In this document: positions 4,865 to 16,954 of the stretch, piece by piece
How the letters are laid out: each line of letters starts with the position of its first letter
Numbering within the stretch: position 1 is the stretch's first letter
Origin: Gallaecimonas sp. GXIMD4217
Lineage (GTDB): Bacteria; Pseudomonadota; Gammaproteobacteria; Enterobacterales; Gallaecimonadaceae
Direction of reading: 5' to 3'
DNA length: 32,000 nt
Assembly (NCBI RefSeq): GCF_038087665.1
Contig: NZ_CP149925.1
Location: 739,455-771,454, forward strand
Translations under genes and position numbers: made by a program
The notes under the pieces: model-generated
Databases searched by the model: none
Told to the model about the DNA's origin: nothing
What the model saw: the letters and a program-made list of their open reading frames with translations, nothing else

Positions 4865-6037
4865 TTGCCCCTGTTACCCGAAAATCCCCTGTCCCCCTCC
4901 CTGACCAGGCAATTGCTGTCGCTGCGCTACGCCCTGTGGCTGAGCGAAGGCGCCATGCTGGCCTGGATCCGTTTCGCCGGCCTCGACTTCGACTATCCGC
5001 TGCTGCTGGCCTGCTGGCTGGGCCATTGGCTGGCCATCAGCCTCAACCTGCTGCCGGCCCTGCGCCGTCGCCACCTGCTGCCGGGGCTGCTGCTGGACAT
5101 TGCCGCCCTGACGTTGCTCTTTGCCCTGTCCGGGGCCAGGGCCAACCCCTTCGTCAGCCTCTACCTGCTGCCGGTGGTGATCACCGTGCTGCTGATGCCG
5201 GGCCGCCCGGCGCTGCTGGCGGGGCTGGCGGCGGCCCTGGGCTACAGCGGCCTGATGCTGTTGCCCGAGTCCCACCAGTGGCACCAGGGCGGCCACTACT
5301 GGGGCATGTGGGCCAACGGCCTGCTGACCCTGGTGCTGCTGCTGTTCTTTGCCGGCCGCATGGGCGCCCAGCTCAGCCGCCAGCGCCAGCACCTGGCCGA
5401 GCTGCGGGAAGAGCAGCTCAGGAGCGAGCGGGTGATGGCGGTGGCGGGCCAGGCGGCCCTGGCCGCCCACCAGCTGTCCACGCCACTGTCGGTGGCCAGG
5501 CTGAGCGTGGACGAGCTGGCCCTGGAGTCCGCCGATCCCCGCCTGGTCGAGATCCGCACCGCCCTGGAGCGCTGCCAGCAGGCCCTGCTTGGGATCCGCG
5601 CCGCTGCCGACCAGGCCGAGCATCCCCATCCCATGGCCCTGGCCGAGCTGTTCGAACAGCTCGACAGGCAGTGGCAGCTGCTCAGGCCCGGGATCCCGCT
5701 GTGGCTGCCGGACGCAGGCGACATCCGCATCAGGGGCGACGCCAGCCTGGTGCCGGCGCTGCTGAACCTGCTGGACAACAGCGCCCACGCCGGCGGCGGC
5801 CGGCCCATAGAGATCAGGTGCCGGCAAGGGGACGGCAAGCTGCTGCTGCACATCCTCGACCAGGGCCAGGGCCTGGGCCCGGAGCTGGCCCTGGACAGGC
5901 CCAGGGAGTCCGACAAGGGCGGCCTGGGCCTGGGGCTGTTCCTGGCCCACGCCAGCCTGGAGCGGCTGGGGGGGCGGTTGTCCCTGGCCGAGGTGCAGGG
6001 ACAACACCGGGTGGAGGTGAGCCTGTGTCTGAGCTGA
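4865..6037 (+). CDS. regB: RegB/PrrB/RoxS-family redox-responsive sensor histidine kinase
   Basis: Polytopic N-terminus carrying GARANPF (5132-5152), which matches the GGXXNPF quinone-site motif of RegB. H-box AAHQLSTPLS, with a Cys 35 residues after the His (ALERCQQAL), similar to the RegB redox Cys. ATPase boxes NLLDNSAHAG, DQGQGLG, GLGLGLFLA. The TTG start at 4865 (GAGG 8 nt upstream) is uncertain. Confidence 0.8.
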   Translation: MPLLPENPLSPSLTRQLLSLRYALWLSEGAMLAWIRFAGLDFDYPLLLACWLGHWLAISLNLLPALRRRHLLPGLLLDIAALTLLFALSGARANPFVSLYLLPVVITVLLMPGRPALLAGLAAALGYSGLMLLPESHQWHQGGHYWGMWANGLLTLVLLLFFAGRMGAQLSRQRQHLAELREEQLRSERVMAVAGQAALAAHQLSTPLSVARLSVDELALESADPRLVEIRTALERCQQALLGIRAAADQAEHPHPMALAELFEQLDRQWQLLRPGIPLWLPDAGDIRIRGDASLVPALLNLLDNSAHAGGGRPIEIRCRQGDGKLLLHILDQGQGLGPELALDRPRESDKGGLGLGLFLAHASLERLGGRLSLAEVQGQHRVEVSLCLS

Positions 6038-6555
6038 AGCTGTTACTGTTGGAAGACGACGCCGCCCTGGCCGCCACCCTGGCCAGGGTGCTGGGGCGCC
6101 AGGGCTACGGCGTCACCCACCTGGCCAGCGGCGAGACCCTGCTGGCCACCGCCGAGCGGCTCAGGCCCCAGGTGGTGCTGCTGGATCTGAAGCTGGCCGA
6201 AGGCACCAGCCTGGGCCTGGTGGCGCCGCTGAGGGCGCTGCTGCCCGAGGCGCGCGTGCTGATGATCACCGGCTTTGCCTCCATCGCCACCGCCGTGGCC
6301 GCCATCAAGGCCGGCGCCGACGACTACCTGCCCAAGCCCCTGGACTTGGCCACGCTGTTGCAGAAGATCGGCGGCGAGGCCCTGGAGGCCGAGCCCGGGG
6401 CCGAGCGGCACCTGTCGCCCCAGCGCCTGGAATGGGAGCACATCCAGCAGGTGCTGGCGGAAAACGACGGCAACGTCTCGGCCACGGCCCGGGCCCTGGG
6501 CATGCACAGGCGTACCCTGCAACGCAAACTGGCCAAGCATCCGGTCAGAAGCTGA
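6025..6555 (+). CDS. regA: RegA/PrrA/RoxR-family response regulator (receiver + Fis-type HTH)
   Basis: GTG start at 6025 preceded by GGAGG; it overlaps the regB stop by 13 nt. Receiver motifs: LLLLEDD, VVLLDLKL, KAGADDYLPKP. C-terminal HTH: NVSATARALGMHRRTLQRKL. Only the last 176 codons of track ORF 4849..6555 are real. Confidence 0.87.
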   Translation: MSELKLLLLEDDAALAATLARVLGRQGYGVTHLASGETLLATAERLRPQVVLLDLKLAEGTSLGLVAPLRALLPEARVLMITGFASIATAVAAIKAGADDYLPKPLDLATLLQKIGGEALEAEPGAERHLSPQRLEWEHIQQVLAENDGNVSATARALGMHRRTLQRKLAKHPVRS

Positions 6556-6632
6556 GGGCCCCTTTGCCGCCAGCTGGCGCTTGGCTACGCCCGGCGCCTT
6601 CCTTGGCAACGCAAACTGGCCAAGCATCCGGT
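6519..6632 (+). repeat. Direct repeat: the regA 3' end (27 nt perfect) duplicated 87 bp downstream
   Basis: gcaacgcaaactggccaagcatccggt occurs at 6519-6545 and again at 6606-6632. Both copies run into an in-frame TGA 10 nt later (HPVRS* versus HPVRA*). Confidence 0.9.
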
Positions 6633-6690
6633 GCGAGCCTGAGTCATCTATTCCCGCAGTTCTCTGGCCGCTCAATCATCCTGGCCTGAA

Positions 6691-6717
6691 TAAAAAAGCC
6701 CCACCTGTGGGTGGGGC
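6691..6717 (-). terminator. Rho-independent terminator of the TonB-dependent receptor gene
   Basis: Stem gccccacc (6698-6705) pairs with ggtggggc (6710-6717) around a 4-nt loop. On the minus strand the hairpin is followed by TTTTTTA (6697-6691). Confidence 0.7.
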
Positions 6718-6749
6718 AAACATCTTCTGCGAAGTGTCGTCGGCTTGCG

Positions 6750-8699
6750 TCAGAAGGCGTAACGCCAGCTCAGCCCCAGGCTGCGGCCGGGCTCCGGCAG
6801 GCGCTGACCCTTGGCGGCGGCCTTACTGTCGATGCGGCTGACGCCGTTCAGGTGTGGCCGGTAGCCCTTGTCCAGGAGGTTGTCCAGGGCCAGGTGCCAC
6901 TGGCCCCAGGCGCTTGGCCAGTCCAGGCTCAGGGACCAGACCCCGAAACCGGGGGAGCGGGTCTCGCCGTTCAGGCGGTTGACCCTGTCCTGGCTGGCCA
7001 CCAGCCAGCCCTGCAGTTGCCACTGCCAGCCATGCTGCTGGCCGGTCAGGGCCAGGCGGGCCTGATCCGGCGCCACCCGGTATAGCCAGGCGTCGTTGTC
7101 CCTGTCCCTGGCCCGCACCAGGCTGTAGTGGCCCGACAGCATCAGGTTGTCGGCAAGGGCGGTCTCGGCGGTCAGCTCCAGGCCCCAGAGCAGGGCGTCG
7201 GTGTTGGCAAAGCACAGCGGCTCATCGTCGTTCATCATGGCCGCCGCCATCTTGATGGCCATGTCGGTGCAGGGCAGGCCCTGGATGTAGTCGTCCACCT
7301 GGTTGGCGAAGACGCCCAGCTCCACCGTGCTGTCCGCGCCCAGCCAGCTCAGGCCGGCGTCCAGCTGCAGCGCGGTCTCGGGAGCCAGTTCCGGGTTGCC
7401 CACATAGGTGCGGCCGTCGGCCAGGCCGCCGGAGGCCTGCATGGGCAGCCAGAGGTAACGGGCCTGGTAGTCCGGCACCTTGACCTTGCGGGCCAGGGTC
7501 AGCTGGCCTTCCCAGTCGTCGCCGAGCTGCCAGGCCTTGCGAGCATAGGCCTCCCAGAAGCTGTCGTCCTGATTGGCCTTGTCGAAGCGATCCAGCAGGG
7601 TGGCGATGGCCGGCATCATGGCCGCCATGGCATGGCGGGGCCGCTCGGCGTCGCCCTGGTGGTGGCTGGCCCGCAGCCCCAGCAGCCAGTCGCCGTTGTC
7701 GTACTCGGCCAGGGCGCTGAGGAAGTCCTGGCTGACATCGTTGAAGGTATCCACCAGGAACATGGGGTTGTTGGGATCGGTGACGGTGGCGTCGTGGCGG
7801 CTCTGCTGCCAGTCCAGGGCCAGCAGCCAGTGCTGTTGCTGCCAGGCCAGGCGGGCGGCGTTGGCGCGGCCCCTGGCCAGGGTCTGGCGGCTCATCATGG
7901 CGGCCGGACGCTGGCTGAAATTGTCCATCAGGTGATCGGTCTGCTGGTGGCTGGCCACCAGCGACCAGGGTCCGGCCTGCCAGCCGGCCTGCCAGAGATG
8001 GGCATGGATGTAGTTGATGTCCATGGGCAGGGCCGGGGTGGTGGCATCTTGGGTGTCCTGGTACTGGTAGTCCAGCCACAGTTCCTGCTCGCCCTGGTGG
8101 CGCAGATTCAGGCGGCCGTGGCTGCGCTCGTATTGCTGGGGCAGGGCGCCGAAGGCGCTGTCGCGATCGCCGCCCTTCTGCCACTGGCCGGACAGGCGCA
8201 GGCCCTGGCTGCCGTTGCCCAGGTTGAGGGCGGCGCTGCCCTGGCGGTGGCGGTCGCCGCCGTTAAGGCCCAGGGCCAGGTTGCCGATGAGGCCGGCGCC
8301 CGTGTCGGCCATCAGCCGCTCCAGGGCGATGGCGCCACCCAGGGTCTGGATGCCGGCGGACAGGGGCGCCGGGCCATCGTGCAGGCGCAGCTCGGCGATT
8401 TCCGAGCTGGGCACCTGGGACAGGCGGCTGTCCATGGCATTGGGGCCGGCGGTGAGCAGCTCCAGGCCGCTGAGGTTGACGCCGATGCGGTTGCCGAACA
8501 GGCCGCGGTAGCCGGCCAGCTTGGTGAGGCGGCCGTTTTCGGGCAGGGCGGCGCCGGGGGCCTTTTCCAGCAGGTCGCTGCTGTCCGGGGCCAGATCCCG
8601 GGCCGGCCGGGTCTCGGTGACGCTGATGACCTCGATATCCTCCTCGGCCAGGGCCGGGCAGGCAAGCAGGATGCACAGAGATAAGTGTCTAATTTTCAT
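6750..8699 (-). CDS. TonB-dependent outer-membrane receptor (649 aa)
   Basis: Start at ATG 8699 with signal peptide MKIRHLSLCILLACPALA. TonB-box/plug region EEDIEVISVTETR, beta-barrel-like alternating pattern, and the typical C-terminal LGLSWRYAF. Substrate is not inferable. Confidence 0.85.
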   Translation of the reverse strand: MKIRHLSLCILLACPALAEEDIEVISVTETRPARDLAPDSSDLLEKAPGAALPENGRLTKLAGYRGLFGNRIGVNLSGLELLTAGPNAMDSRLSQVPSSEIAELRLHDGPAPLSAGIQTLGGAIALERLMADTGAGLIGNLALGLNGGDRHRQGSAALNLGNGSQGLRLSGQWQKGGDRDSAFGALPQQYERSHGRLNLRHQGEQELWLDYQYQDTQDATTPALPMDINYIHAHLWQAGWQAGPWSLVASHQQTDHLMDNFSQRPAAMMSRQTLARGRANAARLAWQQQHWLLALDWQQSRHDATVTDPNNPMFLVDTFNDVSQDFLSALAEYDNGDWLLGLRASHHQGDAERPRHAMAAMMPAIATLLDRFDKANQDDSFWEAYARKAWQLGDDWEGQLTLARKVKVPDYQARYLWLPMQASGGLADGRTYVGNPELAPETALQLDAGLSWLGADSTVELGVFANQVDDYIQGLPCTDMAIKMAAAMMNDDEPLCFANTDALLWGLELTAETALADNLMLSGHYSLVRARDRDNDAWLYRVAPDQARLALTGQQHGWQWQLQGWLVASQDRVNRLNGETRSPGFGVWSLSLDWPSAWGQWHLALDNLLDKGYRPHLNGVSRIDSKAAAKGQRLPEPGRSLGLSWRYAF

Positions 8700-8702
8700 A
8701 AA

Positions 8703-8733
8703 AATACCGCCAGGTAAATTGCCTGGCGGTATT
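8703..8733 (-). terminator. Perfect 12-bp stem-loop with a U-rich tail, ending 3 nt before the receptor ATG
   Basis: aataccgccagg (8703-8714) pairs with cctggcggtatt (8722-8733) around a 7-nt loop. The minus strand reads hairpin-TTT-ATG. A second small hairpin, gggcagg/cctgccc, lies at 8742-8758. Confidence 0.5.
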
Positions 8734-8779
8734 GTATGAAGGGGCAGGGGGCCTGCCCATGTGGCAGATTGTCGCACCC

Positions 8780-9400
8780 TCAGTGGTGGTCGCCGTGCTC
8801 CACGAAGCCCTGCTTGATCAGCTTGCCGATCACCGGATCGCCTTCCATGTCGCCGATATCGGCGAAGTCGATCTGCTCGAAGCCCCGCCAGCGCCGCTCC
8901 AGGGCCTTGAGATCCAGCCCGGCCTGGCCGACCAGCTCCAGCCGGTAGTCGCCCTGGCTGAGGCTGGCCGGCAGCTGCCAGTCGCTGAGCCAGATCAGCT
9001 CCGCCTGGCCCTTCTGGTAGCGGCTGGCTTTCTGGCAGTGCACATCCTCGTGGCTCTCACCGGCCAGGCCCTCGAGCAGGGCCGGCGACACCGGGCTGCC
9101 CTGGGACGGCCAGTCCAGAGGCAGGCCCAGGGTGCGCAGATCGCCCTGGTAGTAGCTGAGGGTCTTGCCGGAATCCAGGAAGTGCTTGTCCAGCTCCAGG
9201 CGGCTGTTTTGGCGCTGCCAGACCTCCACCTGTTGTTGGTCGGGCCGGTAGCGGACCTTGCGATCCTCTTCCACCCACAGGTAGATGTCCTGGCTCTGGC
9301 CGTGCTGGCTGATGCGATAGTGCAGGCCGTCGGCCGGGCTCTGCAGGCAGGCCAGGGCCTGGGCGCTTAGCAGGGAAAACGACAGCAACAGGGTTTTCAT
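8780..9400 (-). CDS. Secreted hypothetical protein (206 aa), function unknown
   Basis: AGGAGA RBS 6 nt upstream of ATG 9400 and signal peptide MKTLLLSFSLLSAQALA. I recognise no family motif. The C-terminus ends HGDHH. Confidence 0.6.
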   Translation of the reverse strand: MKTLLLSFSLLSAQALACLQSPADGLHYRISQHGQSQDIYLWVEEDRKVRYRPDQQQVEVWQRQNSRLELDKHFLDSGKTLSYYQGDLRTLGLPLDWPSQGSPVSPALLEGLAGESHEDVHCQKASRYQKGQAELIWLSDWQLPASLSQGDYRLELVGQAGLDLKALERRWRGFEQIDFADIGDMEGDPVIGKLIKQGFVEHGDHH

Positions 9401-9419
9401 GGTGGCTCTCCTACAACAA

Positions 9420-9443
9420 GGCGGCAGGAGCTGTCCTGCCGCC
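9420..9443 (-). terminator. Stem-loop after alkaline phosphatase 1 (probable terminator/attenuator)
   Basis: ggcggcagga (9420-9429) pairs with tcctgccgcc (9434-9443), loop gctg. On the minus strand it is followed by TTGTTGT, a weak U tract. Confidence 0.45.
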
Positions 9444-9462
9444 CGGGGTACTGACTGGGGTC

Positions 9463-11076
9463 TTACTTGGTGGTGGCTTCGGCGCGGCCGACCAGATCGG
9501 CGGCGTGGTTCATCACGTGGAAGACCAGGCTCTGCTCGTTGGTGCCCTGCACCAGGGCGGCGCCGGGGCCGCGGGCGAACACCGCCACGTCTTCACCGGC
9601 GTGGCTCTCGCTGTCCTTGGGGATCAGCGCTTCCTGGTGGAAGTCCGGGTGCTGGACGTTGACGCCGTGCAGATCCTTGCGGCCCACGTCGATGTCCATG
9701 CCGTAGCGGTTGTCGCCGGCGCCAAACTCGGCAAAGCCCATGCCGTTGTAGTAGCCGACGGCGGTGTAGGGCATGCCGTTGGCGTCCAGGGCCGGGCCCG
9801 AGACCGGCTCGCCGCGACCGTCGTTACCCTGGACCAGGCCCAGGATGGGGTTGCCGCGGGTCGGGTAGCCGGCAATGGTCATCACGTGGCCGTGGTCGGC
9901 GGTGACGATGATCAGGGTGTCCTCGGCGCTGGTGTTGTCCATGGCCACCTTGACGGCCTCGGCCAGGGACAGGGTGTCTTCCATGGCGCGGTAGGCGTTG
10001 CCGGCGTGGTGGGCGTGGTCGATGCGACCGGCCTCGACCATCAGGAAGTAGCCCTTGTCGTTCCTGGACAGGATCTCCAGGGACTTCTTGGTCATCTCGG
10101 CCAGGGTCGGCTCGCCGGCCACGTCGTCACGGATGTCGGTGCTGTACTGCATGTGGGAGCTGTTGAACAGGCCCAGCAGGTGGTCGGTGCTGGCGGCGTC
10201 TATGGCGTCGAAGCCGGCCTTGTCCCAGACGTAGGCGGCGTTGTCGTACTTGGTGGTCCATTCGGCGGTCAGGTCACGGCCGTCGCCGCGCTTGCCGGCC
10301 TTGCCCTCGCCGTCGGTGACGGTGCTGGGGAGAAATTCGCGGCGGCCGCCGCCCAGGGCCACTTCGATGCCGTTGCCGTAGTTGAAGTCGATCAGCTGGC
10401 TGGCGATGTCCTTGCAGCCGGTCGCTTCGGCGGGCAGCTTGGTGTCGTTCTCCCAGTTGCGATCCGGGGCCACGGCATAGGTGGCGGCCGGGGTGGCGTG
10501 GGTCAGGCGGGCGGTGGACACCACGCCGGTGCTCATGCCGGCCTCTTCGGCCAGTTGCAGGGCGCTGACCAGCTCGTGGCCGGCCACGGTGCTGCAGTCG
10601 CCGCGTTCGACCGCTTCGGCCACATTGATGATGCCGGCGTCGGTCTTGACGCCGGTCATCATGGCGGTCATGGTGCCGGCGGAGTCCGGGGTCTGGGCGT
10701 CGGTGTTGTAGGTCTTGGCGAAGCCCACATAGGGCAGGGTCTCGAAGCTCAGCTTGTGCTCCTCGCCGCTGTAGCCGAGCTTCTGGCCCTCGAAGATGCG
10801 GGCGGCGGTGATGGTGGACACGCCCATGCCGTCGCCCACGAACAGGATGACGTTCTTGGCGGAGCCCTTGGCCAGCTCGGCGACCCGGGCGGCGTTGTCG
10901 GTGACCACCAGCTGGCCGTCGTTGAACCATTGGTTGGCCAGGGTGAAGTCGCCGGCGGGCTGCTCGGGCACCGTGGGCTTGTCGGGCTCGGCCGGGGTGC
11001 TGGTGGCGGTGTCGTTGTCACAGGCCGCCAGGCCCAAGACGGCGGCCATGCTCAGGGCAATGAGGTTCTTGTTCAT
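9463..11076 (-). CDS. Alkaline phosphatase (PhoA/PLAP superfamily), lipoprotein-type signal
   Basis: 537 aa. Lipobox-like MAAVLGLAAC. Motifs: FVGDGMGVSTITAARI (nucleophile Ser region), RLTHATPAATYA, GRIDHAHHAGNA, VTADHGH. Confidence 0.9.
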   Translation of the reverse strand: MNKNLIALSMAAVLGLAACDNDTATSTPAEPDKPTVPEQPAGDFTLANQWFNDGQLVVTDNAARVAELAKGSAKNVILFVGDGMGVSTITAARIFEGQKLGYSGEEHKLSFETLPYVGFAKTYNTDAQTPDSAGTMTAMMTGVKTDAGIINVAEAVERGDCSTVAGHELVSALQLAEEAGMSTGVVSTARLTHATPAATYAVAPDRNWENDTKLPAEATGCKDIASQLIDFNYGNGIEVALGGGRREFLPSTVTDGEGKAGKRGDGRDLTAEWTTKYDNAAYVWDKAGFDAIDAASTDHLLGLFNSSHMQYSTDIRDDVAGEPTLAEMTKKSLEILSRNDKGYFLMVEAGRIDHAHHAGNAYRAMEDTLSLAEAVKVAMDNTSAEDTLIIVTADHGHVMTIAGYPTRGNPILGLVQGNDGRGEPVSGPALDANGMPYTAVGYYNGMGFAEFGAGDNRYGMDIDVGRKDLHGVNVQHPDFHQEALIPKDSESHAGEDVAVFARGPGAALVQGTNEQSLVFHVMNHAADLVGRAEATTK

Positions 11077-11091
11077 GTTCTACTCCGCAAA

Positions 11092-12588
11092 TCAGTAAGA
11101 GGTGCCGCCCAGTTCCAGGGCTTGGTTGATGACGTGGAAGACGACGTTCTGCTCGATGGCGCCCTGCACCAGCTGGGCGCCGGGGCCCTTGGCGTGCAGG
11201 CTGATGTCTTCGCCGGCGTGGGTTTCGGAGCTCATGGGCACCAGGGCCTGCTGCATGAAGTCCTTGTCTTGGGTGTCCACCTCGCTCAGGTCGGCGCGCT
11301 CGCCGTCCACGGCGCCGGGGCCGTTCTGGTAGCCCAGGGTGGTGTAGGGCTTGCCGTCGGCGGCCAGGGACAGGCTGCCGTCCTGGTTCTCGACCAGGCC
11401 CAGGATGGGGTTGCCGCGGCGGGGATAGCCGCCGATGGTCAGCACGTGGCTGTGGTCGGCGGTGACCAGGATCAGGGTGTCGTCACCGGCCTTGTCGACG
11501 GCGGCCTGGACGGCCCTGGCGAATTCCACGGCGTCGGTCAGGGCGCGGTGGGCATTGCCGGCGTGGTGGCCATGGTCGATGCGGCCGGCTTCCACGGTCA
11601 GGAAGTAGCCGTTGTTGTTCCTGGCCAGCAGATCCATGGCCTTGGTGGTCATCTCGGTCAGGGAGGGCTCGCCGGCGGTGTCGTCGGCGCGGTCGGCCTC
11701 GTATTCCATGTGGGAGCTGTTGAACAGGCCCAGCAGCTTGTCGGTACCGGCCGGGTCGATGGCGTCGAAGCCGGCCTGATCCCAGACATAGGCGGCGCCG
11801 TCACGGCTGGCCCACTCGGCGGTCAGGTCGCGGCCATCGGTGCGTCTGCCGGACTTGCCTTCGCCGTCGGTGACTTCGGCTGGGATGAAGTTGCGGCGGC
11901 CGCCGCCCAGGGCCACGTCGATGCCGTCGCCATGGGGGAAGTCAATGAGTTGGGCGGCGATGTCGGTGCAGCCCAGCTGCTTGGCTTCGGCGGGCAGCTG
12001 GCCGTCGTGCTCCCAGCCGCGCTCCGGTACATGGGCGTAGGTGGCGGCCGGGGTGGCGTGGGTCAGGCGGGCGGTGGAGACCACACCGGTGGCCAGGCCC
12101 TTCTGTTCGGCCAGTTCCAGGGCGGTGATCAGCTCCTGGCCCCGGGCACTCTGGCAGTCGCCGCGCAGGGCGTCCTGGGTCACGGAGATGAAGCCGGCCT
12201 TGGACTTGACGCCGGTGACCATGGCGGTCATGGTGCCGGCGGAGTCCGGGGTCTGCTGGTTGGTGTTGTAGGTCTTGACCAGGGCGGTGTGGGGGAATTT
12301 CTCGAAGGACAGCAGGTGCTCTTCGCCGCCGTCGGGGTTGCTCTGCTGGCCTTCCAGGATGCGGGCGGCGGTCAGGGTGGAGATGCCCATGCCGTCGCCG
12401 ACGAACAGGATCACGTTCTTGGCCTTGGTGGCGGGGGCCTGGGCACTGGCCTTGTCGGCGGCCAGGGCGGCGCCCTCGGTGAACCAGGGGCTGGCGGTCT
12501 GGTGGGCGGGCAGCACGGCGGCCTGGGCACCCAGGCTGGCGCCGAACAGGGCGGCGCAGATGCCGTGGTAGAGCGCAGAGTGTTTCAT
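11092..12588 (-). CDS. Alkaline phosphatase paralogue (498 aa), secreted
   Basis: Start chosen at ATG 12588 (AAGGA 6 nt upstream; MKHSALYHGICAALFGASLGAQA). It carries the same motif set: FVGDGMGISTLTAARI, RLTHATPAATYA, GRIDHGHHAGNA, VTADHSH. A GGAG RBS for the downstream paralogue lies in the 15-nt gap. Confidence 0.88.
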   Translation of the reverse strand: MKHSALYHGICAALFGASLGAQAAVLPAHQTASPWFTEGAALAADKASAQAPATKAKNVILFVGDGMGISTLTAARILEGQQSNPDGGEEHLLSFEKFPHTALVKTYNTNQQTPDSAGTMTAMVTGVKSKAGFISVTQDALRGDCQSARGQELITALELAEQKGLATGVVSTARLTHATPAATYAHVPERGWEHDGQLPAEAKQLGCTDIAAQLIDFPHGDGIDVALGGGRRNFIPAEVTDGEGKSGRRTDGRDLTAEWASRDGAAYVWDQAGFDAIDPAGTDKLLGLFNSSHMEYEADRADDTAGEPSLTEMTTKAMDLLARNNNGYFLTVEAGRIDHGHHAGNAHRALTDAVEFARAVQAAVDKAGDDTLILVTADHSHVLTIGGYPRRGNPILGLVENQDGSLSLAADGKPYTTLGYQNGPGAVDGERADLSEVDTQDKDFMQQALVPMSSETHAGEDISLHAKGPGAQLVQGAIEQNVVFHVINQALELGGTSY

Positions 12589-12738
12589 TGTCATTCCTTT
12601 TGAACTGTCCTTGCCGGGCAAGGATGAAGATGCAAGTTGTGGTAAAAAGGCGGGGCCATTAAAAGGGAAGGGCATTGCAGATTTATTAAAAATTTATGTA
12701 ATTCAGAATGTTACATTTTGATGTCGGAGGGATGACGG

Positions 12739-13371
12739 ATGAGCGTTAAAGTCTGGGACGGCTTTGTCAGGACTTATCACTGGGCCCAGGTGGCCCTGTT
12801 GGGGCTGTGCTGGTACAGCGCCGAGCAGGGCCTGATGGACTGGCACCAGTACAGCGCCCTGGCGCTGCTGGGGCTGTGGCTGGGGCGGCTGGCCTGGGGG
12901 CTGCTGGGCTCGGAAAACGCCCGCTTTGGCCATTTCGTTCGCGGCCCCAGGGCCGTGCTCGCCTATGTGCGGGGCGAGCGGCAACAGGGCAGTGATGGCC
13001 ACAACCCCCTGGCCGGCTGGATGGTAGCCGTGCTGCTGCTACTGCTGGGGGGGCAGCTGGGCACGGGCCTCTTTGCCAGCGACGAGGTGCTCACCGAGGG
13101 GCCTCTCTATGGCCTGGTCAGCGAGGAAACCTCGGCCTGGCTCACCGAGCTCCATGAGCTCAACTTCAACCTGCTGCTGGGGCTGGTTGCCCTGCACGTG
13201 CTGGCGGCCCTGGCCCACCAGTTCAGGGGCGAGAACCTGATCGGCGCCATGATCACCGGTCGCAAGGCCGCCGAACGCAGCCCGGCACTGGGCAACGTGC
13301 TGCTGGCCTGGAGCTTGGTGCTGCTGGCCTGGGGTGGCCTCTACCTGTGGTGGGGCCGCCATATCGGCTGA
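12739..13371 (+). CDS. Cytochrome b561-family / Ni-Fe-hydrogenase b-type cytochrome-like membrane protein
   Basis: 210 aa. GGAGGG RBS. Four predicted TM helices with conserved His positions (VRTYHW, DGHNPLAG, ALHVLAALAH). Confidence 0.75.
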   Translation: MSVKVWDGFVRTYHWAQVALLGLCWYSAEQGLMDWHQYSALALLGLWLGRLAWGLLGSENARFGHFVRGPRAVLAYVRGERQQGSDGHNPLAGWMVAVLLLLLGGQLGTGLFASDEVLTEGPLYGLVSEETSAWLTELHELNFNLLLGLVALHVLAALAHQFRGENLIGAMITGRKAAERSPALGNVLLAWSLVLLAWGGLYLWWGRHIG

Positions 13372-13372
13372 C

Positions 13373-13400
13373 AAAAAAAGGCGCCCTGGGGCGCCTTTTT
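13373..13400. terminator. Bidirectional rho-independent terminator (cytochrome b / cytochrome c-prime)
   Basis: A-run 13373-13379, stem ggcgcc (13380-13385), loop ctgg, stem ggcgcc (13390-13395), TTTTT 13396-13400. Confidence 0.75.
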
Positions 13401-13414
13401 CATCTTGACCGCCA

Positions 13415-13870
13415 TCAGCGGTTCTTGAAGTCCTTGTGGCAGGCCTTGCAGTTCTTGGCCGCAGCCACGAAGGCCGGCTTGATGGCGTTCAGATCGCCGC
13501 TCTTGGCCTTGTCCAGCAGCGCCACCGTATCGGCCTGGAAGCCGCTCAGGCGCTTTTTGAACTCCTCGGTGTTTTCCCACACCTCGGCCCTGGCCTTGGT
13601 GTCGCCCTTATCGGCGCCCGGGTACAGGAAGCCTTCCAGGGGCATGTGGGACAGGGCCTTGAGGCTCTCGGCCCGGTACTGGAACTCCTCGGCGTTGAAG
13701 TCCTTCTTGCCCTTGACCATGGCGGCCATCTCACCGAAGTGCTTGGCAACCAGGGAGAACACGGAGCGGCGGTAGTCGATGGCTTCGTCCTTGTCGTCGA
13801 AGGCCTGGGCCAGGGGACTGGCCAGCAGGGGGGCGGCGAGGGCGGCCGCCAGGGCATACTTGCGCATCAT
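13415..13870 (-). CDS. Cytochrome c-prime (class II c-type cytochrome)
   Basis: Start at ATG 13870 (AGGA 6 nt upstream) with signal peptide MMRKYALAAALAAPLLASPLAQA. A single CKACH heme site sits near the C-terminus and the body is four-helix-bundle-like. Confidence 0.85.
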   Translation of the reverse strand: MMRKYALAAALAAPLLASPLAQAFDDKDEAIDYRRSVFSLVAKHFGEMAAMVKGKKDFNAEEFQYRAESLKALSHMPLEGFLYPGADKGDTKARAEVWENTEEFKKRLSGFQADTVALLDKAKSGDLNAIKPAFVAAAKNCKACHKDFKNR

Positions 13871-14156: not shown

Positions 14157-14517
14157 GGGGCCGATTAGGATTCGACGGGGATCACGAAACCCAAGGTGCA
14201 TGCCGAGGTGCGGTTGGCCTCGTAAAAAAACCGCAAACAAATAGTCGCAAACGACGAAAACTACGCACTCGCTGCCTAATAAGCAGTAGAGAGCCCTTCC
14301 CCCTTAGCCCGCCTGTCGGCTTTGGATCAGGAAGGTCAAACCTGACAGGATCGCGTGGCGGCTTTGCCTGGAGCCAAAGCGTTAAAACCAATCAGGCTCG
14401 CTGCTTGATAGCCTGCCCCTCGGCGCTCAACGCAGTTAACTAAAAGAGACGGCTAAGCATGTAGTACCGACGGCGTAGGGTCAACGGACGGGGGTTCAAA
14501 TCCCCCCGGCTCCACCA
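14157..14517 (+). ncRNA. ssrA: tmRNA (SsrA), one-piece; tag reading frame ANDENYALAA
   Basis: 5' end GGGGCCGATTAGGATTCGACGGGG and 3' end GGGGGTTCAAATCCCCCCGGCTCCACCA (tRNA-like domain ending in CCA). Resume codon and tag GCAAACGACGAAAACTACGCACTCGCTGCCTAA at 14247-14279. Colinear with my recollection of E. coli ssrA. Confidence 0.97.
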
Positions 14518-14520
14518 AAC

Positions 14521-14562
14521 GCAAACAAAAACGCCTCCCAACCGGGAGGCGTTTTTGTTTGC
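14521..14562 (+). terminator. ssrA rho-independent terminator
   Basis: Perfect 19-bp stem gcaaacaaaaacgcctccc (14521-14539) / gggaggcgtttttgtttgc (14544-14562), loop aacc, with a T-run inside the descending arm. Confidence 0.85.
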
Positions 14563-14721
14563 GCTAGACGGTGAGCCCGGTGGGTGCCGAACCCCCTCGG
14601 GGTCACAAAATGGCAGGACAGCCATTTTGGAGCGCCGCAGGCGACCCCGTAGGGGCGAGGACCAGGGAAGGTCCGAGTCAAATCCCCCGGCGGTTGGCTT
14701 TCTCCGAAAAGTGACATACCT

Positions 14722-14825
14722 ATGGGTTCACCGGTTTGCCGGGAGCAAACCGGAACGGCCGCAGGCCGGCCCCGAGCGTAGCGAGCGGGTGAGGCGCAGG
14801 GACGCGCCGAATAAACCCCCCCCGG
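14722..14825 (+). repeat. Near-identical repeat copy 1 (core of U2)
   Basis: 104 nt. It matches 14903-15005 apart from two substitutions (T/C at 14779 versus 14960; C/T just after aataaa, 14816 versus 14997) and one C-run indel. Period 181 bp. Confidence 0.9.
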
Positions 14826-14902
14826 CGTATTTCATTCCCGATCTTGGGTGGCTTTTGTCGTTTTTGGCCTTTGACGAAGAGCCCGGCGGGTGCCGAACCC
14901 CC

Positions 14903-15005
14903 ATGGGTTCACCGGTTTGCCGGGAGCAAACCGGAACGGCCGCAGGCCGGCCCCGAGCGCAGCGAGCGGGTGAGGCGCAGGGACGCGCCGAATAAATCCC
15001 CCCGG
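14903..15005 (+). repeat. Near-identical repeat copy 2 (core of U3)
   Basis: See copy 1. Here it is preceded by module A (14879-14902), which otherwise occurs only at 14573-14596 (23/24 identical). Confidence 0.9.
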
Positions 15006-15153
15006 TGAGTGGCTTCCTCCTTTTTCCGACAATTCACATAATCCCCATGGGCTCACCAATCGGCAGGATAACCGATTGGCATATTGCGCAGAATAAGTGC
15101 CAGAGATAGCGCCACTGAACGTCCCTATTTCCTGATATCGAACGCCAATGCTG

Positions 15154-16053
15154 CTATAGCTGGTGTACCCAAAGGTCTTCACTGACGATCGCCAGCGGCC
15201 TACCATGTTTTTCCCGGTAATCAACAGCCTTTAAGATTTTGTTTCCGAAGGTAGTGTGACGCCAGTCCCTCGAGCCGTGCAGCCCTACGACCAAGTAGTC
15301 CAAGTCGCGTTTTATCCCTGTCATTATGGTGCCACCGCGAAGGCGTACGGCTTCCTCGCACTTTGATCTGGTGCCAAACTGGAATCGTCCGGTAAAGCAA
15401 AAAGCGGTGCCGTTAAAGTCCAACTCGGCGTCATGATCCAGCGGCATACCGCTTGAGAGCCCAGAGACGGCACCGTGTTCCATTGGATTTCCGGTCAGGT
15501 CCTCCAGCATGAGGGTCAATGTACTGCGCTCGTCCTCGGTGATGACACCATCGGCGAGAATCATGCGTAAGGTACTGGCCAGCTCACTGCCTGGCCAGCG
15601 CTGGCAAGCTGCCGGATTCATCCTGAACCAGCGATCTAAGGCCCGGATCTCCTGATCGTTGACGATGCCGTCTGCCAATATGCCGCAGGCAATGCCTACC
15701 AGCTCATCCACTTGGTGTTCGTCGCATCCCAACTCAACATCCAGCCAAACGGGGTTCTCGGCAATGGCAGTGCATAGGTAAAGTAGCTCACTTCGTTCCT
15801 CATCATCGATAACCCTGTCTGAGACAATGTTATCGATGCGCTCGGCTACACAGGCGGTTGTCTTATGGTTTCGAATGGCCCAGGCATCGGCGAGCCAAGT
15901 GGTGAGGTAAGCGAGTTCGGCATTGTTGAGCTTCTTATCAGCTGTAATACCTTTTAGAAGACCTTTCAGTGTATCGAACGCCTTGCGACGGTTATTTCGG
16001 AAGTTGATACCAAAGCTGCTCGGTTGACCATGCGGGTTCAACTCGATGTTCAT
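15154..16053 (-). CDS. Uncharacterised protein: two TerB-like helical repeat domains + C-terminal BRCT domain (299 aa)
   Basis: ATG 16053 has a perfect GGAGG 5 nt upstream. Four amphipathic segments of the TerB type: ITADKKLNNAELAYL, VSDRVIDDEERSELL, ILADGIVNDQEIRAL, ILADGVITEDERSTL. C-terminal BRCT as in the LigA C-terminus: FCFTGRFQFGTRSKCEEAVRLRGGTIMTGIKRDLDYLVVG ... W. GC is visibly lower than in the flanks. Confidence 0.8.
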   Translation of the reverse strand: MNIELNPHGQPSSFGINFRNNRRKAFDTLKGLLKGITADKKLNNAELAYLTTWLADAWAIRNHKTTACVAERIDNIVSDRVIDDEERSELLYLCTAIAENPVWLDVELGCDEHQVDELVGIACGILADGIVNDQEIRALDRWFRMNPAACQRWPGSELASTLRMILADGVITEDERSTLTLMLEDLTGNPMEHGAVSGLSSGMPLDHDAELDFNGTAFCFTGRFQFGTRSKCEEAVRLRGGTIMTGIKRDLDYLVVGLHGSRDWRHTTFGNKILKAVDYREKHGRPLAIVSEDLWVHQL

Positions 16054-16152
16054 GTGGACCTCCATGTCACTGATAATTGGGCACAAGACTAAAAGTGGTT
16101 CTTGGAGACGTCTTTCGCAAGCCAAGGGTGGATGGCCTCTAATCCTGGTTGT

Positions 16153-16192
16153 TTGACAAAGCATTGACAGCAGCAACCCTTGAGGCTTAGCT
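16153..16192 (+). promoter_or_regulatory. Possible promoter of the NRDE gene: tandem TTGACA hexamers, weak -10
   Basis: TTGACA occurs at 16153-16158 and 16164-16169. After a 17-nt spacer comes TTAGCT (16187-16192). The ATG lies 7 nt after the -10 and has no SD. Confidence 0.3.
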
Positions 16193-16198
16193 GACCCC

Positions 16199-16954
16199 AT
16201 GTGCACCGTCGTGATCCTGCGCCGGCCCGGCCATGATTGGCCGGTGCTGCTCGGCGCCAACAGAGACGAGATGGCCGACCGCCCCTGGCGGCCGCCGGGG
16301 CGGCATTGGCCCGGGCTGCCGGGCGTGACCGCCGGCCTGGATGTGCTGGGCGGCGGTACCTGGCTCGGGCTCAACGACCAGGGCCTGGTGGCCACTGTGC
16401 TGAACCGGCCCGGCTCCCTGGGGCCGGCCAGGGGCAAGCGCTCCCGGGGCGAGCTGCCGCTGAAGGCCCTGGCCCATGACAGCGCCGACGCTGCCGTCCG
16501 GGCTCTTACGGCCCTCGACGGCGGCGGCTATCGGCCCTTCAACCTGCTGCTGGCCGACCGCCATGGCGCCTACTGGCTCAGGGGCCTGGGCCAGGGGGCC
16601 ATCAAGGCCCGGGCCGTGCCGGAGGGCCTGTCCATGCTGACCGCCCATGACCTCAACGACGTCGAGAACAGCCCCCGCCTGGCCGCCAACCTGCCGCGCT
16701 TTCGGGCCGCGCCCGTGCCGGAGCCTGGCCGGGGCGACTGGCGGGCCTGGCAGGGGCTGCTGGCCGAACCGGGCCGGCTGCCGCCGGATCCGGCTCGCTT
16801 TCACATCAGGCCGGACGCGATGCAGGTGACCAGCTCGGTGGGCTTCGGCACCCTCTGCTCGGCGCTCATTGCCCTGCCGGCCACCGGCAAGCCGCTCTGG
16901 CTCAATGCCGACGGTCCGCCGGACAGCAGCCCTTTCCAGGCGGTGCCGTCCTAA
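16199..16954 (+). CDS. NRDE-family protein (DUF833 / TANGO2-like)
   Basis: 251 aa. N-terminal MCT (Cys2) and the hallmark GANRDE motif (LLGANRDEMADRPW). GGTWLGLN. Confidence 0.85.
   Translation: MCTVVILRRPGHDWPVLLGANRDEMADRPWRPPGRHWPGLPGVTAGLDVLGGGTWLGLNDQGLVATVLNRPGSLGPARGKRSRGELPLKALAHDSADAAVRALTALDGGGYRPFNLLLADRHGAYWLRGLGQGAIKARAVPEGLSMLTAHDLNDVENSPRLAANLPRFRAAPVPEPGRGDWRAWQGLLAEPGRLPPDPARFHIRPDAMQVTSSVGFGTLCSALIALPATGKPLWLNADGPPDSSPFQAVPS

Follow-up and report, generated by a model that had tools for sequence, protein, structure and literature searches.

The 1999 work of Nesper et al. is said to have shown that Orf2 of the P2-like Vibrio cholerae phage K139 confers superinfection immunity. 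The K139 record annotates this gene in a PL 'lysogenic operon' of the order cI-orf2-glo-int, and the same protein occurs in identical form in K139, Kappa kp3, VPUSM8, 919TP and VcP032. The corresponding phage protein family, PHROG 3989, carries no assigned function. Also related is PDC-S48 of PADLOC, a computational candidate for phage defence; long forms related to it carry an RNase_T exonuclease. In the BRCT domain of RFC, a TG motif hydrogen-bonds a phosphate of the DNA backbone. The affinity of this domain for 5'-phosphorylated dsDNA is tied to the motif, which in phosphopeptide-binding BRCTs is where the phosphate binds (PMC9359705).

We identified an intact, horizontally acquired, stand-alone copy of this widespread temperate-phage accessory family beside ssrA in Gallaecimonas sp. 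GXIMD4217. The gene is located in a 32,000-nt stretch of DNA that was analysed as a whole (the window). Residues 10-298 of its product match positions 2-291 of the 296 positions of phrog_3989 (E 1.6e-83), a tblastn alignment to K139 orf2 / Kappa kp3 covers 98% at 31.5% identity (E 8e-44), and the protein spans positions 1-293 of 295 in the family profile. On the evidence of these alignments, it is almost certainly a full-length member of the PHROG 3989 / K139 Orf2 family. The preliminary description of the locus had found no characterised function for this fusion, a view that gives way to homology with PHROG 3989 / K139 Orf2, for which a review cites Nesper 1999 on superinfection immunity. The closest relatives are at most 41% identical to the protein and, thus, transfer of function is tentative. 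Family membership is known territory; new are the orphan setting at the ssrA flank, the vertically inherited clade in Pseudohongiellaceae, and the refutation of an RNA module (below). Coordinates of the features are given in Table 1.

Table 1. Features of the ssrA flank and of the BRCT-protein gene (positions within the window).
Feature	Position	Strand	Basis or remark
ssrA (tmRNA), tag ANDENYALAA, left landmark of the variable site	14157..14517	+	ARAGORN; Rfam RF00023, 240.6 bits
ssrA terminator hairpin, perfect 20-nt inverted repeat	14520..14563	+	repeat analysis
Repeat array of structured modules, separating ssrA from the 3' end of the BRCT gene	14565..15091	.	genus-conserved
299-aa ORF, K139-Orf2/PHROG 3989-family gene	15154..16053	-	open frame and phrog_3989 match
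Predicted BRCT domain, residues about 210-298	15160..15426	-	Foldseek, family profile
Predicted helical repeat unit 2, residues about 112-187, common to 200-aa short forms, weak TerB match	15493..15720	-	AF2, hhalign
Predicted helical repeat unit 1, residues about 18-104, two ADG/SD..E motifs	15742..16002	-	AF2 helices, hhalign
Divergent intergenic region, BRCT gene / TANGO2-NRDE gene	16054..16198	.	145 nt, unique in genome
GGAGG ribosome-binding site	16059..16063	-	5 nt ahead of ATG, from sequence
TANGO2/NRDE-family gene, right boundary, native composition	16199..16954	+	Pfam PF05742; GC3 0.90

The reading frame contains no internal stop and translates to the full 299 amino acids. Its GC content is 0.534 and its GC3 0.613, compared with GC3 values of 0.87-0.94 in five neighbouring genes and a GC content of 0.67 for the window. 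Single 60-nt lines contain 28/60 G+C at 15961-16020 and 48/60 at 16261-16320, the latter in the neighbouring NRDE gene. These hand counts, the sharp difference in composition and the perfect GGAGG ribosome-binding site had all been reported in the preliminary description and were found again here, the counts exactly. The gene is single copy in the 3.35-Mb, one-contig genome. Among five congeners it occurs in one (G002), at a different site (between TetR/HlyD and NhaA), and the copy there falls in another clade of the family. Thus, the two copies in the genus represent independent acquisitions. We conclude that the gene is foreign, because its GC3 is 0.61 against about 0.9 in its surroundings and because only one of five congeners has it, elsewhere in the genome and as a member of another clade. 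A promoter scan of the divergent intergenic region recognised no consensus sigma-70 site.

An AlphaFold model built from 52 homologues (pLDDT 88.8, pTM 0.75) predicts two helical bundles, a linker and an alpha/beta domain at residues 217-298. The predicted helices of unit 1 are at residues 18-36, 44-56, 64-78 and 84-99 (pLDDT 90+). Each unit is acidic, with four to five helices and two ADG-x5-E-type motifs, and in unit 2 the residues G124, E135, D168 and E175 are invariant across the family. An hhalign comparison of unit 1 with unit 2 gave 99.8% (E 3e-28, 75 columns), which identifies the pair as a true internal duplication. The four xxADGxxxxxE-type motifs noted at first sight are therefore real and form this duplication, and profile and fold also agree with the proposed layout of two helical repeat units followed by a LigA/RFC1-type BRCT. 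The family has two architectures: one of about 300 aa, as here, and one of about 205 aa with a single helical unit plus BRCT. A short N-terminal D-x-x-G-Q-P peptide is kept in both. The architecture contains no enzymatic domain, and no membrane segments were predicted, the protein consisting of all-helical bundles and the BRCT.

The helical units had been labelled TerB. The likeness to TerB (PF05099) and to the DjlA N-terminal domain consists of a helical unit with two ADG-x5-E acidic motifs. Comparison by hhalign with 30 bona fide TerB domains gave 42% and 28% (E 2.6e-4 and 6.5e-4; reversed control, 0.9%), and aligned both ADG..E motifs of unit 1 with TerB motifs, with about 33 TerB residues missing. 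Weak matches at E<0.01 also occur in the family (TerB PF05099 in 8/52 members and DUF533 in 3/52). Such matches could be taken to indicate a Ter-type protein, involved in tellurite or metal stress, that acts via its TerB-like domains. However, the PF05099 score of the protein itself (19 bits) is below the gathering score of 24.4, the hhalign values are only those given above, and TerB comprises about 116 residues versus about 80 for the unit here. Foldseek searches with the helical part (N-terminal 200 residues, model pLDDT 73.7) returned generic helical bundles (best E 0.39) and no match to a TerB fold. There are no Ter genes near the BRCT gene, and no Ter operon. A PF05099 scan of the genome at E<=1e-8 did not pick up the gene, and found a bona fide TerB-domain gene at 393.9 kb. 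A Ter-type role is thus very improbable. The motifs behind the label hold up, and the units may be called 'TerB-like' in a loose sense, with at most a remote and doubtful kinship to TerB.

On the protein alone, the BRCT model PF00533 scores 18.6 bits, under its gathering score of 21.3. Among the relatives, 34 of 52 match it at E<=0.01 (best E 7.8e-9). Foldseek searches with the predicted C-terminal domain retrieved the RFC1 BRCT-DNA complex 2k7f (rmsd 2.3 A over 86 columns), as well as 2ebu, LigA and other BRCTs, and the family profile matches the BRCTs of RFC1 (E 6.8e-7) and LigA (about 1e-5) in the PDB. T221-G222 and W264 are invariant, and R229 and K272 are present in 51/52 family members; T221-G222, R229 and K272 align with the TG, Arg and Lys of RFC1. 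Profile and model place the C-terminal domain among the BRCTs of RFC1/LigA class, its predicted phosphate pocket (TG/Arg/Lys) being intact, and bear out its earlier description as LigA-type. Matches in NCBIfam are limited to the BRCT tails of LigA (residues 208-263) and of an epsilon-like exonuclease. The adenylation, OB, Zn and HhH domains of NAD-dependent DNA ligase were not matched, only its BRCT tail. The name 'NAD-dependent DNA ligase', given to some family members, is a misnomer, as these proteins have no ligase catalytic domain.

The family is large. From a 90%-identity collection, 167 of 1,314 word-sharing candidates matched at E<=1e-3, and a 50%-identity library contains at least 3000 representatives at E<=1e-3 (299 at E<=1e-30). 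Longer relatives carry the module fused to an RNase_T exonuclease, to HIRAN, or to HhH2+BRCT, all of which act on DNA ends or nicks. In the maximum-likelihood family tree the window protein forms a long lone branch, and K139 Orf2 is in a different clade. PDC-S48 is matched by 47/52 family members (best E 1.5e-12). It shares with the window protein a helical unit + BRCT module (profile positions 238-375 of 411), and has about 237 further N-terminal positions that the window protein lacks. Membership in PDC-S48 was rejected, as the match is confined to the shared module. Literature searches on BRCT plus TerB plus prophage, on PDC-S48 and on BRCT defence proteins returned nothing specific.

The surroundings of ssrA differ among species of the genus. 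Cytochrome c', ssrA and the first repeat modules are kept upstream in the congeners, and everything past the array differs. In G004, the flank is an islet of low GC that contains genes for an AHH nuclease toxin and an Imm11-like protein as well as a 449-aa ORF without assignment; the same 100-nt repeat, in an inverted copy, marks its boundary. In G001 it holds TetR and a Kdp operon. Because different content follows the array in each congener, we conclude that the ssrA 3' flank is a variable site and a synteny breakpoint in the genus. Reconstruction of the empty site from the congeners failed: synteny past ssrA differs in every species, and the NRDE gene lies megabases away from ssrA in G001 and G004.

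Signs of an integrated element were sought around the gene. The window contains no second ssrA 3' end (25-mer, up to 3 mismatches) and no cI-like or integrase-like ORF. None of the five tyrosine recombinases of the genome is within 120 kb, and the sole S24 peptidase is 103 kb away. This confirms the earlier view of an orphan beside ssrA without an integrase; an ssrA-integrated island or prophage would have an integrase and, at the borders of the insert, a directly repeated ssrA 3' end, and neither was found here. Could the gene be a passenger without function, all that is left at the ssrA hotspot of a prophage or island that has decayed, and not (yet) inactivated itself? A single low-GC gene without integrase, repressor or att repeat would fit such an origin, as would a breakpoint with different cargo in each congener and the position of the protein on a long lone branch. 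However, the frame is complete when set against the family profile and keeps every invariant family residue, it is preceded by a strong ribosome-binding site, and it is not flanked by gene remnants or pseudogenes (the islet consists of the gene and flanks of about 150 nt). Orphan copies elsewhere are also conserved across species. We therefore consider a passenger gene unlikely.

The repeat array consists of two 104-nt copies (14719-14822 and 14900-15003) plus module heads at 14590 and 15040, and repeats of this type occur nowhere else in the genome. The preliminary description raised the possibility that the gene works with the structured array on its 3' side as a compact protein + RNA module, for example in defence or addiction. 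The array does physically adjoin the gene, and the hairpins of its modules look structured. However, it is found 3' of ssrA in all five congeners, including the four that lack the gene (G001, G003, G004 and G005), and in G004 the repeats flank different cargo (the AHH toxin/Imm11 islet). When compared by blastn with loci L001-L081, about 30 of which are loci of homologues, the array was found only beside ssrA in this genus. Its retention in congeners without the gene refutes the module, and a joint function of gene and array has next to no chance of being correct. The array belongs to the ssrA site and not to the system of the BRCT gene. A defence-type function of the gene, also raised in the preliminary description, is a reasonable guess.

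Homologues occur in three settings: prophages, next to an S24 repressor (lambdoid, P2-like and Mu-like); defence or IS islets; and orphan chromosomal positions. Nine homologues located by exact-protein look-ups all belong to lambdoid prophages; they lie in the cI/early-left gap, at a distance of 0-3 genes from the S24 repressor. These include all three closest homologues with long contigs, and the hosts of S24-linked prophages include Oceanimonas, Aeromonas hydrophila and Serratia. Gene order in Stutzerimonas phage PG1 is S24 repressor, hypothetical gene, BRCT protein, and in Pseudomonas phage Lodos it is integrase, lipoprotein, BRCT protein. The phage copies belong to the lysogeny/immunity module, where they adjoin the cI repressor gene or share its transcript. 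Other contexts include RhuM with SIR2-HerA, ISL3 or IS110 transposases, and a Mor activator. One homologue adjoins an MTase-Mrr fusion and IS1595 (GC 0.43 vs 0.61), and another shares a small islet with an M78-HTH/DUF4411 pair. Orphan copies recur in Aeromonas spp., in Sedimenticola and in the congener G002. In several Aeromonas species the orphan copy is near-identical and has LacI/PTS genes on one side and acetyltransferase genes on the other.

The only recurrent neighbours in an all-against-all comparison were cI, cII, a replication protein and an integrase. No conserved partner gene was found among the neighbours of homologues and, thus, we infer that the protein acts autonomously. Autonomous action is also indicated by the orphan copy described here, taken together with the Aeromonas orphans and the vertical Pseudohongiellaceae copies.

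Species-representative genomes gave 78 loci, and about 39 of these belong to Pseudohongiellaceae, SAR86 and related MAGs. The latter have a single conserved housekeeping neighbourhood in common, which comprises UGSC, thiolase, Band_7, an ECF sigma factor and a 478-aa thioredoxin-like protein whose identity between species is 70-84%. These loci contained no phage-like ORFs, and a PDB sequence search with two of the conserved Pseudohongiella neighbours gave no matches. The copies form one clade with support of 100 in the maximum-likelihood tree, nested in a 99-supported clade with the copies of K139, a Mu-like element, a SIR2-HerA island and the congener. Nesting among mobile copies suggests one domestication from the mobile pool, a secondary event after which the clade has been inherited vertically. 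Homologues as core genes with conserved neighbours, the pattern that the preliminary description had set against its own proposal, are thus found in Pseudohongiellaceae/SAR86 alone and not family-wide.

Such stability raises the question of whether the protein serves the cell rather than excludes phage. It may be an accessory factor of DNA repair or replication, sensing nicks or ends together with LigA or other host DNA-transaction proteins, which would be useful to host and phage alike and would not constitute immunity. Vertical inheritance in about 39 Pseudohongiellaceae/SAR86 species-level genomes (clade support 100%) with conserved core neighbours is consistent with this role, as are the BRCT of LigA/RFC1 class, the fusions of the module to HIRAN, RNase_T and HhH2, and the stable orphan copies in ordinary contexts across Aeromonas species. 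One Rhizobium short form is convergent with ligA, the sole ligA adjacency in the sample. Against this role, prevalence is low and patchy (a screen of 400 gammaproteobacterial genomes gave about 17 strong matches, and the gene occurs in 6/41 relatives including the present genome and in 1/5 congeners) and the composition of the window gene is foreign. The dominant link is to prophage immunity regions and to defence or IS islets, and the vertical clade is nested among mobile copies, which indicates secondary domestication. We regard a role in DNA maintenance as possible, though the less probable reading.

We favour a role in phage exclusion or defence, with a probability of about 0.5. In its favour are the linkage to phage immunity regions and to defence/IS islets, the module shared with PDC-S48, and the citation for K139 Orf2 in the review. 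Points against it are the clade of about 39 Pseudohongiellaceae/SAR86 species in a housekeeping neighbourhood (such stability is unusual for defence genes), the ligA-adjacent short form, the absence of a recognised promoter and the identity of at most 41% to relatives. A further point against is that BRCT pockets can bind phosphopeptides in place of DNA.

If the protein is an exclusion or defence factor, it would act alone and be made constitutively. Foreign DNA, whether incoming or replicating, would be bound by the BRCT pocket at 5'-phosphorylated ends or nicks, and the part of the helical units would be multimerisation, metal-dependent regulation or the binding of a partner. Acting after DNA entry, the protein would bring about superinfection exclusion or a defence against phage, for example if ends were occluded from ligation/circularisation or from replication restart. 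A logic based on DNA ends is consistent with the fold match to the RFC1 BRCT-DNA complex, with the kept residues T221/G222/R229/K272, and with the fusions to RNase_T, HIRAN and HhH2+BRCT. Occlusion of ends as the specific mechanism is speculative and rather doubtful. More broadly, but still tentatively, the family may represent an uncharacterised class of single-protein, non-enzymatic immunity, in which a BRCT 'end reader' caps or marks 5'-phosphorylated ends or nicks of injected phage genomes and the acidic units serve as switch or multimeriser. Such a class would have repeatedly left prophages and become fixed in marine lineages (Pseudohongiellaceae/SAR86). The window gene is modest as a finding; it offers a clean single-gene target for phage-challenge and DNA-end-binding work.

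Several described systems can be compared with the window protein. The BRCTs of RFC1 (p140) and LigA have the fold, the TG motif, the Arg and the Lys in common with it, whereas RFC1 and LigA also have clamp-loader or ligase catalytic domains, neither of which is present here. K139 Orf2 aligns with the protein end to end and has the same length, architecture and conserved motifs. However, orf2 is located inside the PL lysogenic operon of a phage, whereas the window gene is alone, with no phage genes in the window or nearby. The products of lambda rexAB, P22 sieB and K139 Glo, as well as BstA, have no sequence or fold kinship with the window protein, which is predicted to be soluble, but its homologues occupy the same slot beside cI, and lysogens are expected to express them. 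In many unrelated temperate phages, the family is found at the position classically taken by exclusion genes.

In genomes resembling Pseudohongiellaceae and SAR86, the BRCT-family gene (homologues of the gene for P0001, the 299-aa K139 Orf2-family protein of the window) is vertically inherited. It lies there amid conserved housekeeping neighbours (L132-L190, ~39 loci; L193 5476-6369), which include genes for a 478-aa thioredoxin-like protein, UGSC, thiolase, S1-P1 nuclease, Band_7 and an ECF sigma factor. These copies form a single clade nested among mobile copies. A near-identical orphan copy is common to Aeromonas veronii, A. sobria and A. finlandensis (L194/L195 7001-7912), with LacI/PTS genes on one side and acetyltransferase genes on the other; phage genes are absent around it. 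Its sister is a prophage copy from A. hydrophila.

The conflict cargo at the ssrA site differs in a sister species, as congener G004 (locus L029) has a toxin islet 3' of ssrA with a GC content of 0.51-0.56 vs ~0.67. The islet encodes an AHH-family HNH nuclease toxin and a protein resembling Imm11, together with a 449-aa ORF that has no annotation; no integrase was found within it. Structured modules lie immediately 3' of ssrA throughout the genus, where they are conserved, with further copies in L014, L016 and L017, and the GXIMD4217 genome has them only at this site. Each module opens with AAYCCCC-NNN-GGGYTCAC and continues into a hairpin whose architecture is constant and whose stem sequence varies (AAAATGG/CCATTTT, CGGTTTG/CAAACCG, CAATCGG/CCGATTG). 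Because an inverted copy borders the G004 islet, the modules may be recombination or insertion sites. Upstream of ssrA, ~6.2 kb of the window (6546-12747), with genes for a TonB-receptor-like protein and for two alkaline phosphatases in tandem as well as a 206-aa ORF, is missing from a region of G004 that is otherwise collinear (window 4933-6545 and 12748-13840 correspond to L029 3812-5409 and 5451-6543).

Coordinates of features at the ssrA site and in BRCT-family genes
Feature	Location	Strand	Remarks
Structured modules	window 14565-15091		~100-180 nt each; directly 3' of ssrA
Structured modules, G004	L029 7059-7309, 9291-9348, 10989-11089		
Low-GC islet, G004	L029 7768-10799		3' of ssrA
201-aa short form and ligA, Rhizobium	L026 7001-7606 and 7627-10056	convergent	20 nt apart
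BRCT gene/cI 3'-end overlap	L024 8874-8882; L028 7871-7879	convergent	9 nt
D/N-x-x-G-Q-P peptide	P0001 residues 6-11; window 16021-16038	minus	before first helix

The short form of the family adjoins ligA, the NAD-dependent DNA ligase gene, in a Rhizobium genome where recN is also nearby; this adjacency was not seen at any other sampled locus. The BRCT gene and the cI repressor gene are convergent and overlap at their 3' ends in two enterobacterial prophages, so that transcription of one could interfere with that of the other. The N-terminal peptide of P0001, which is conserved across the 300-aa and 205-aa architectures alike, could serve as a short linear motif for interactions.
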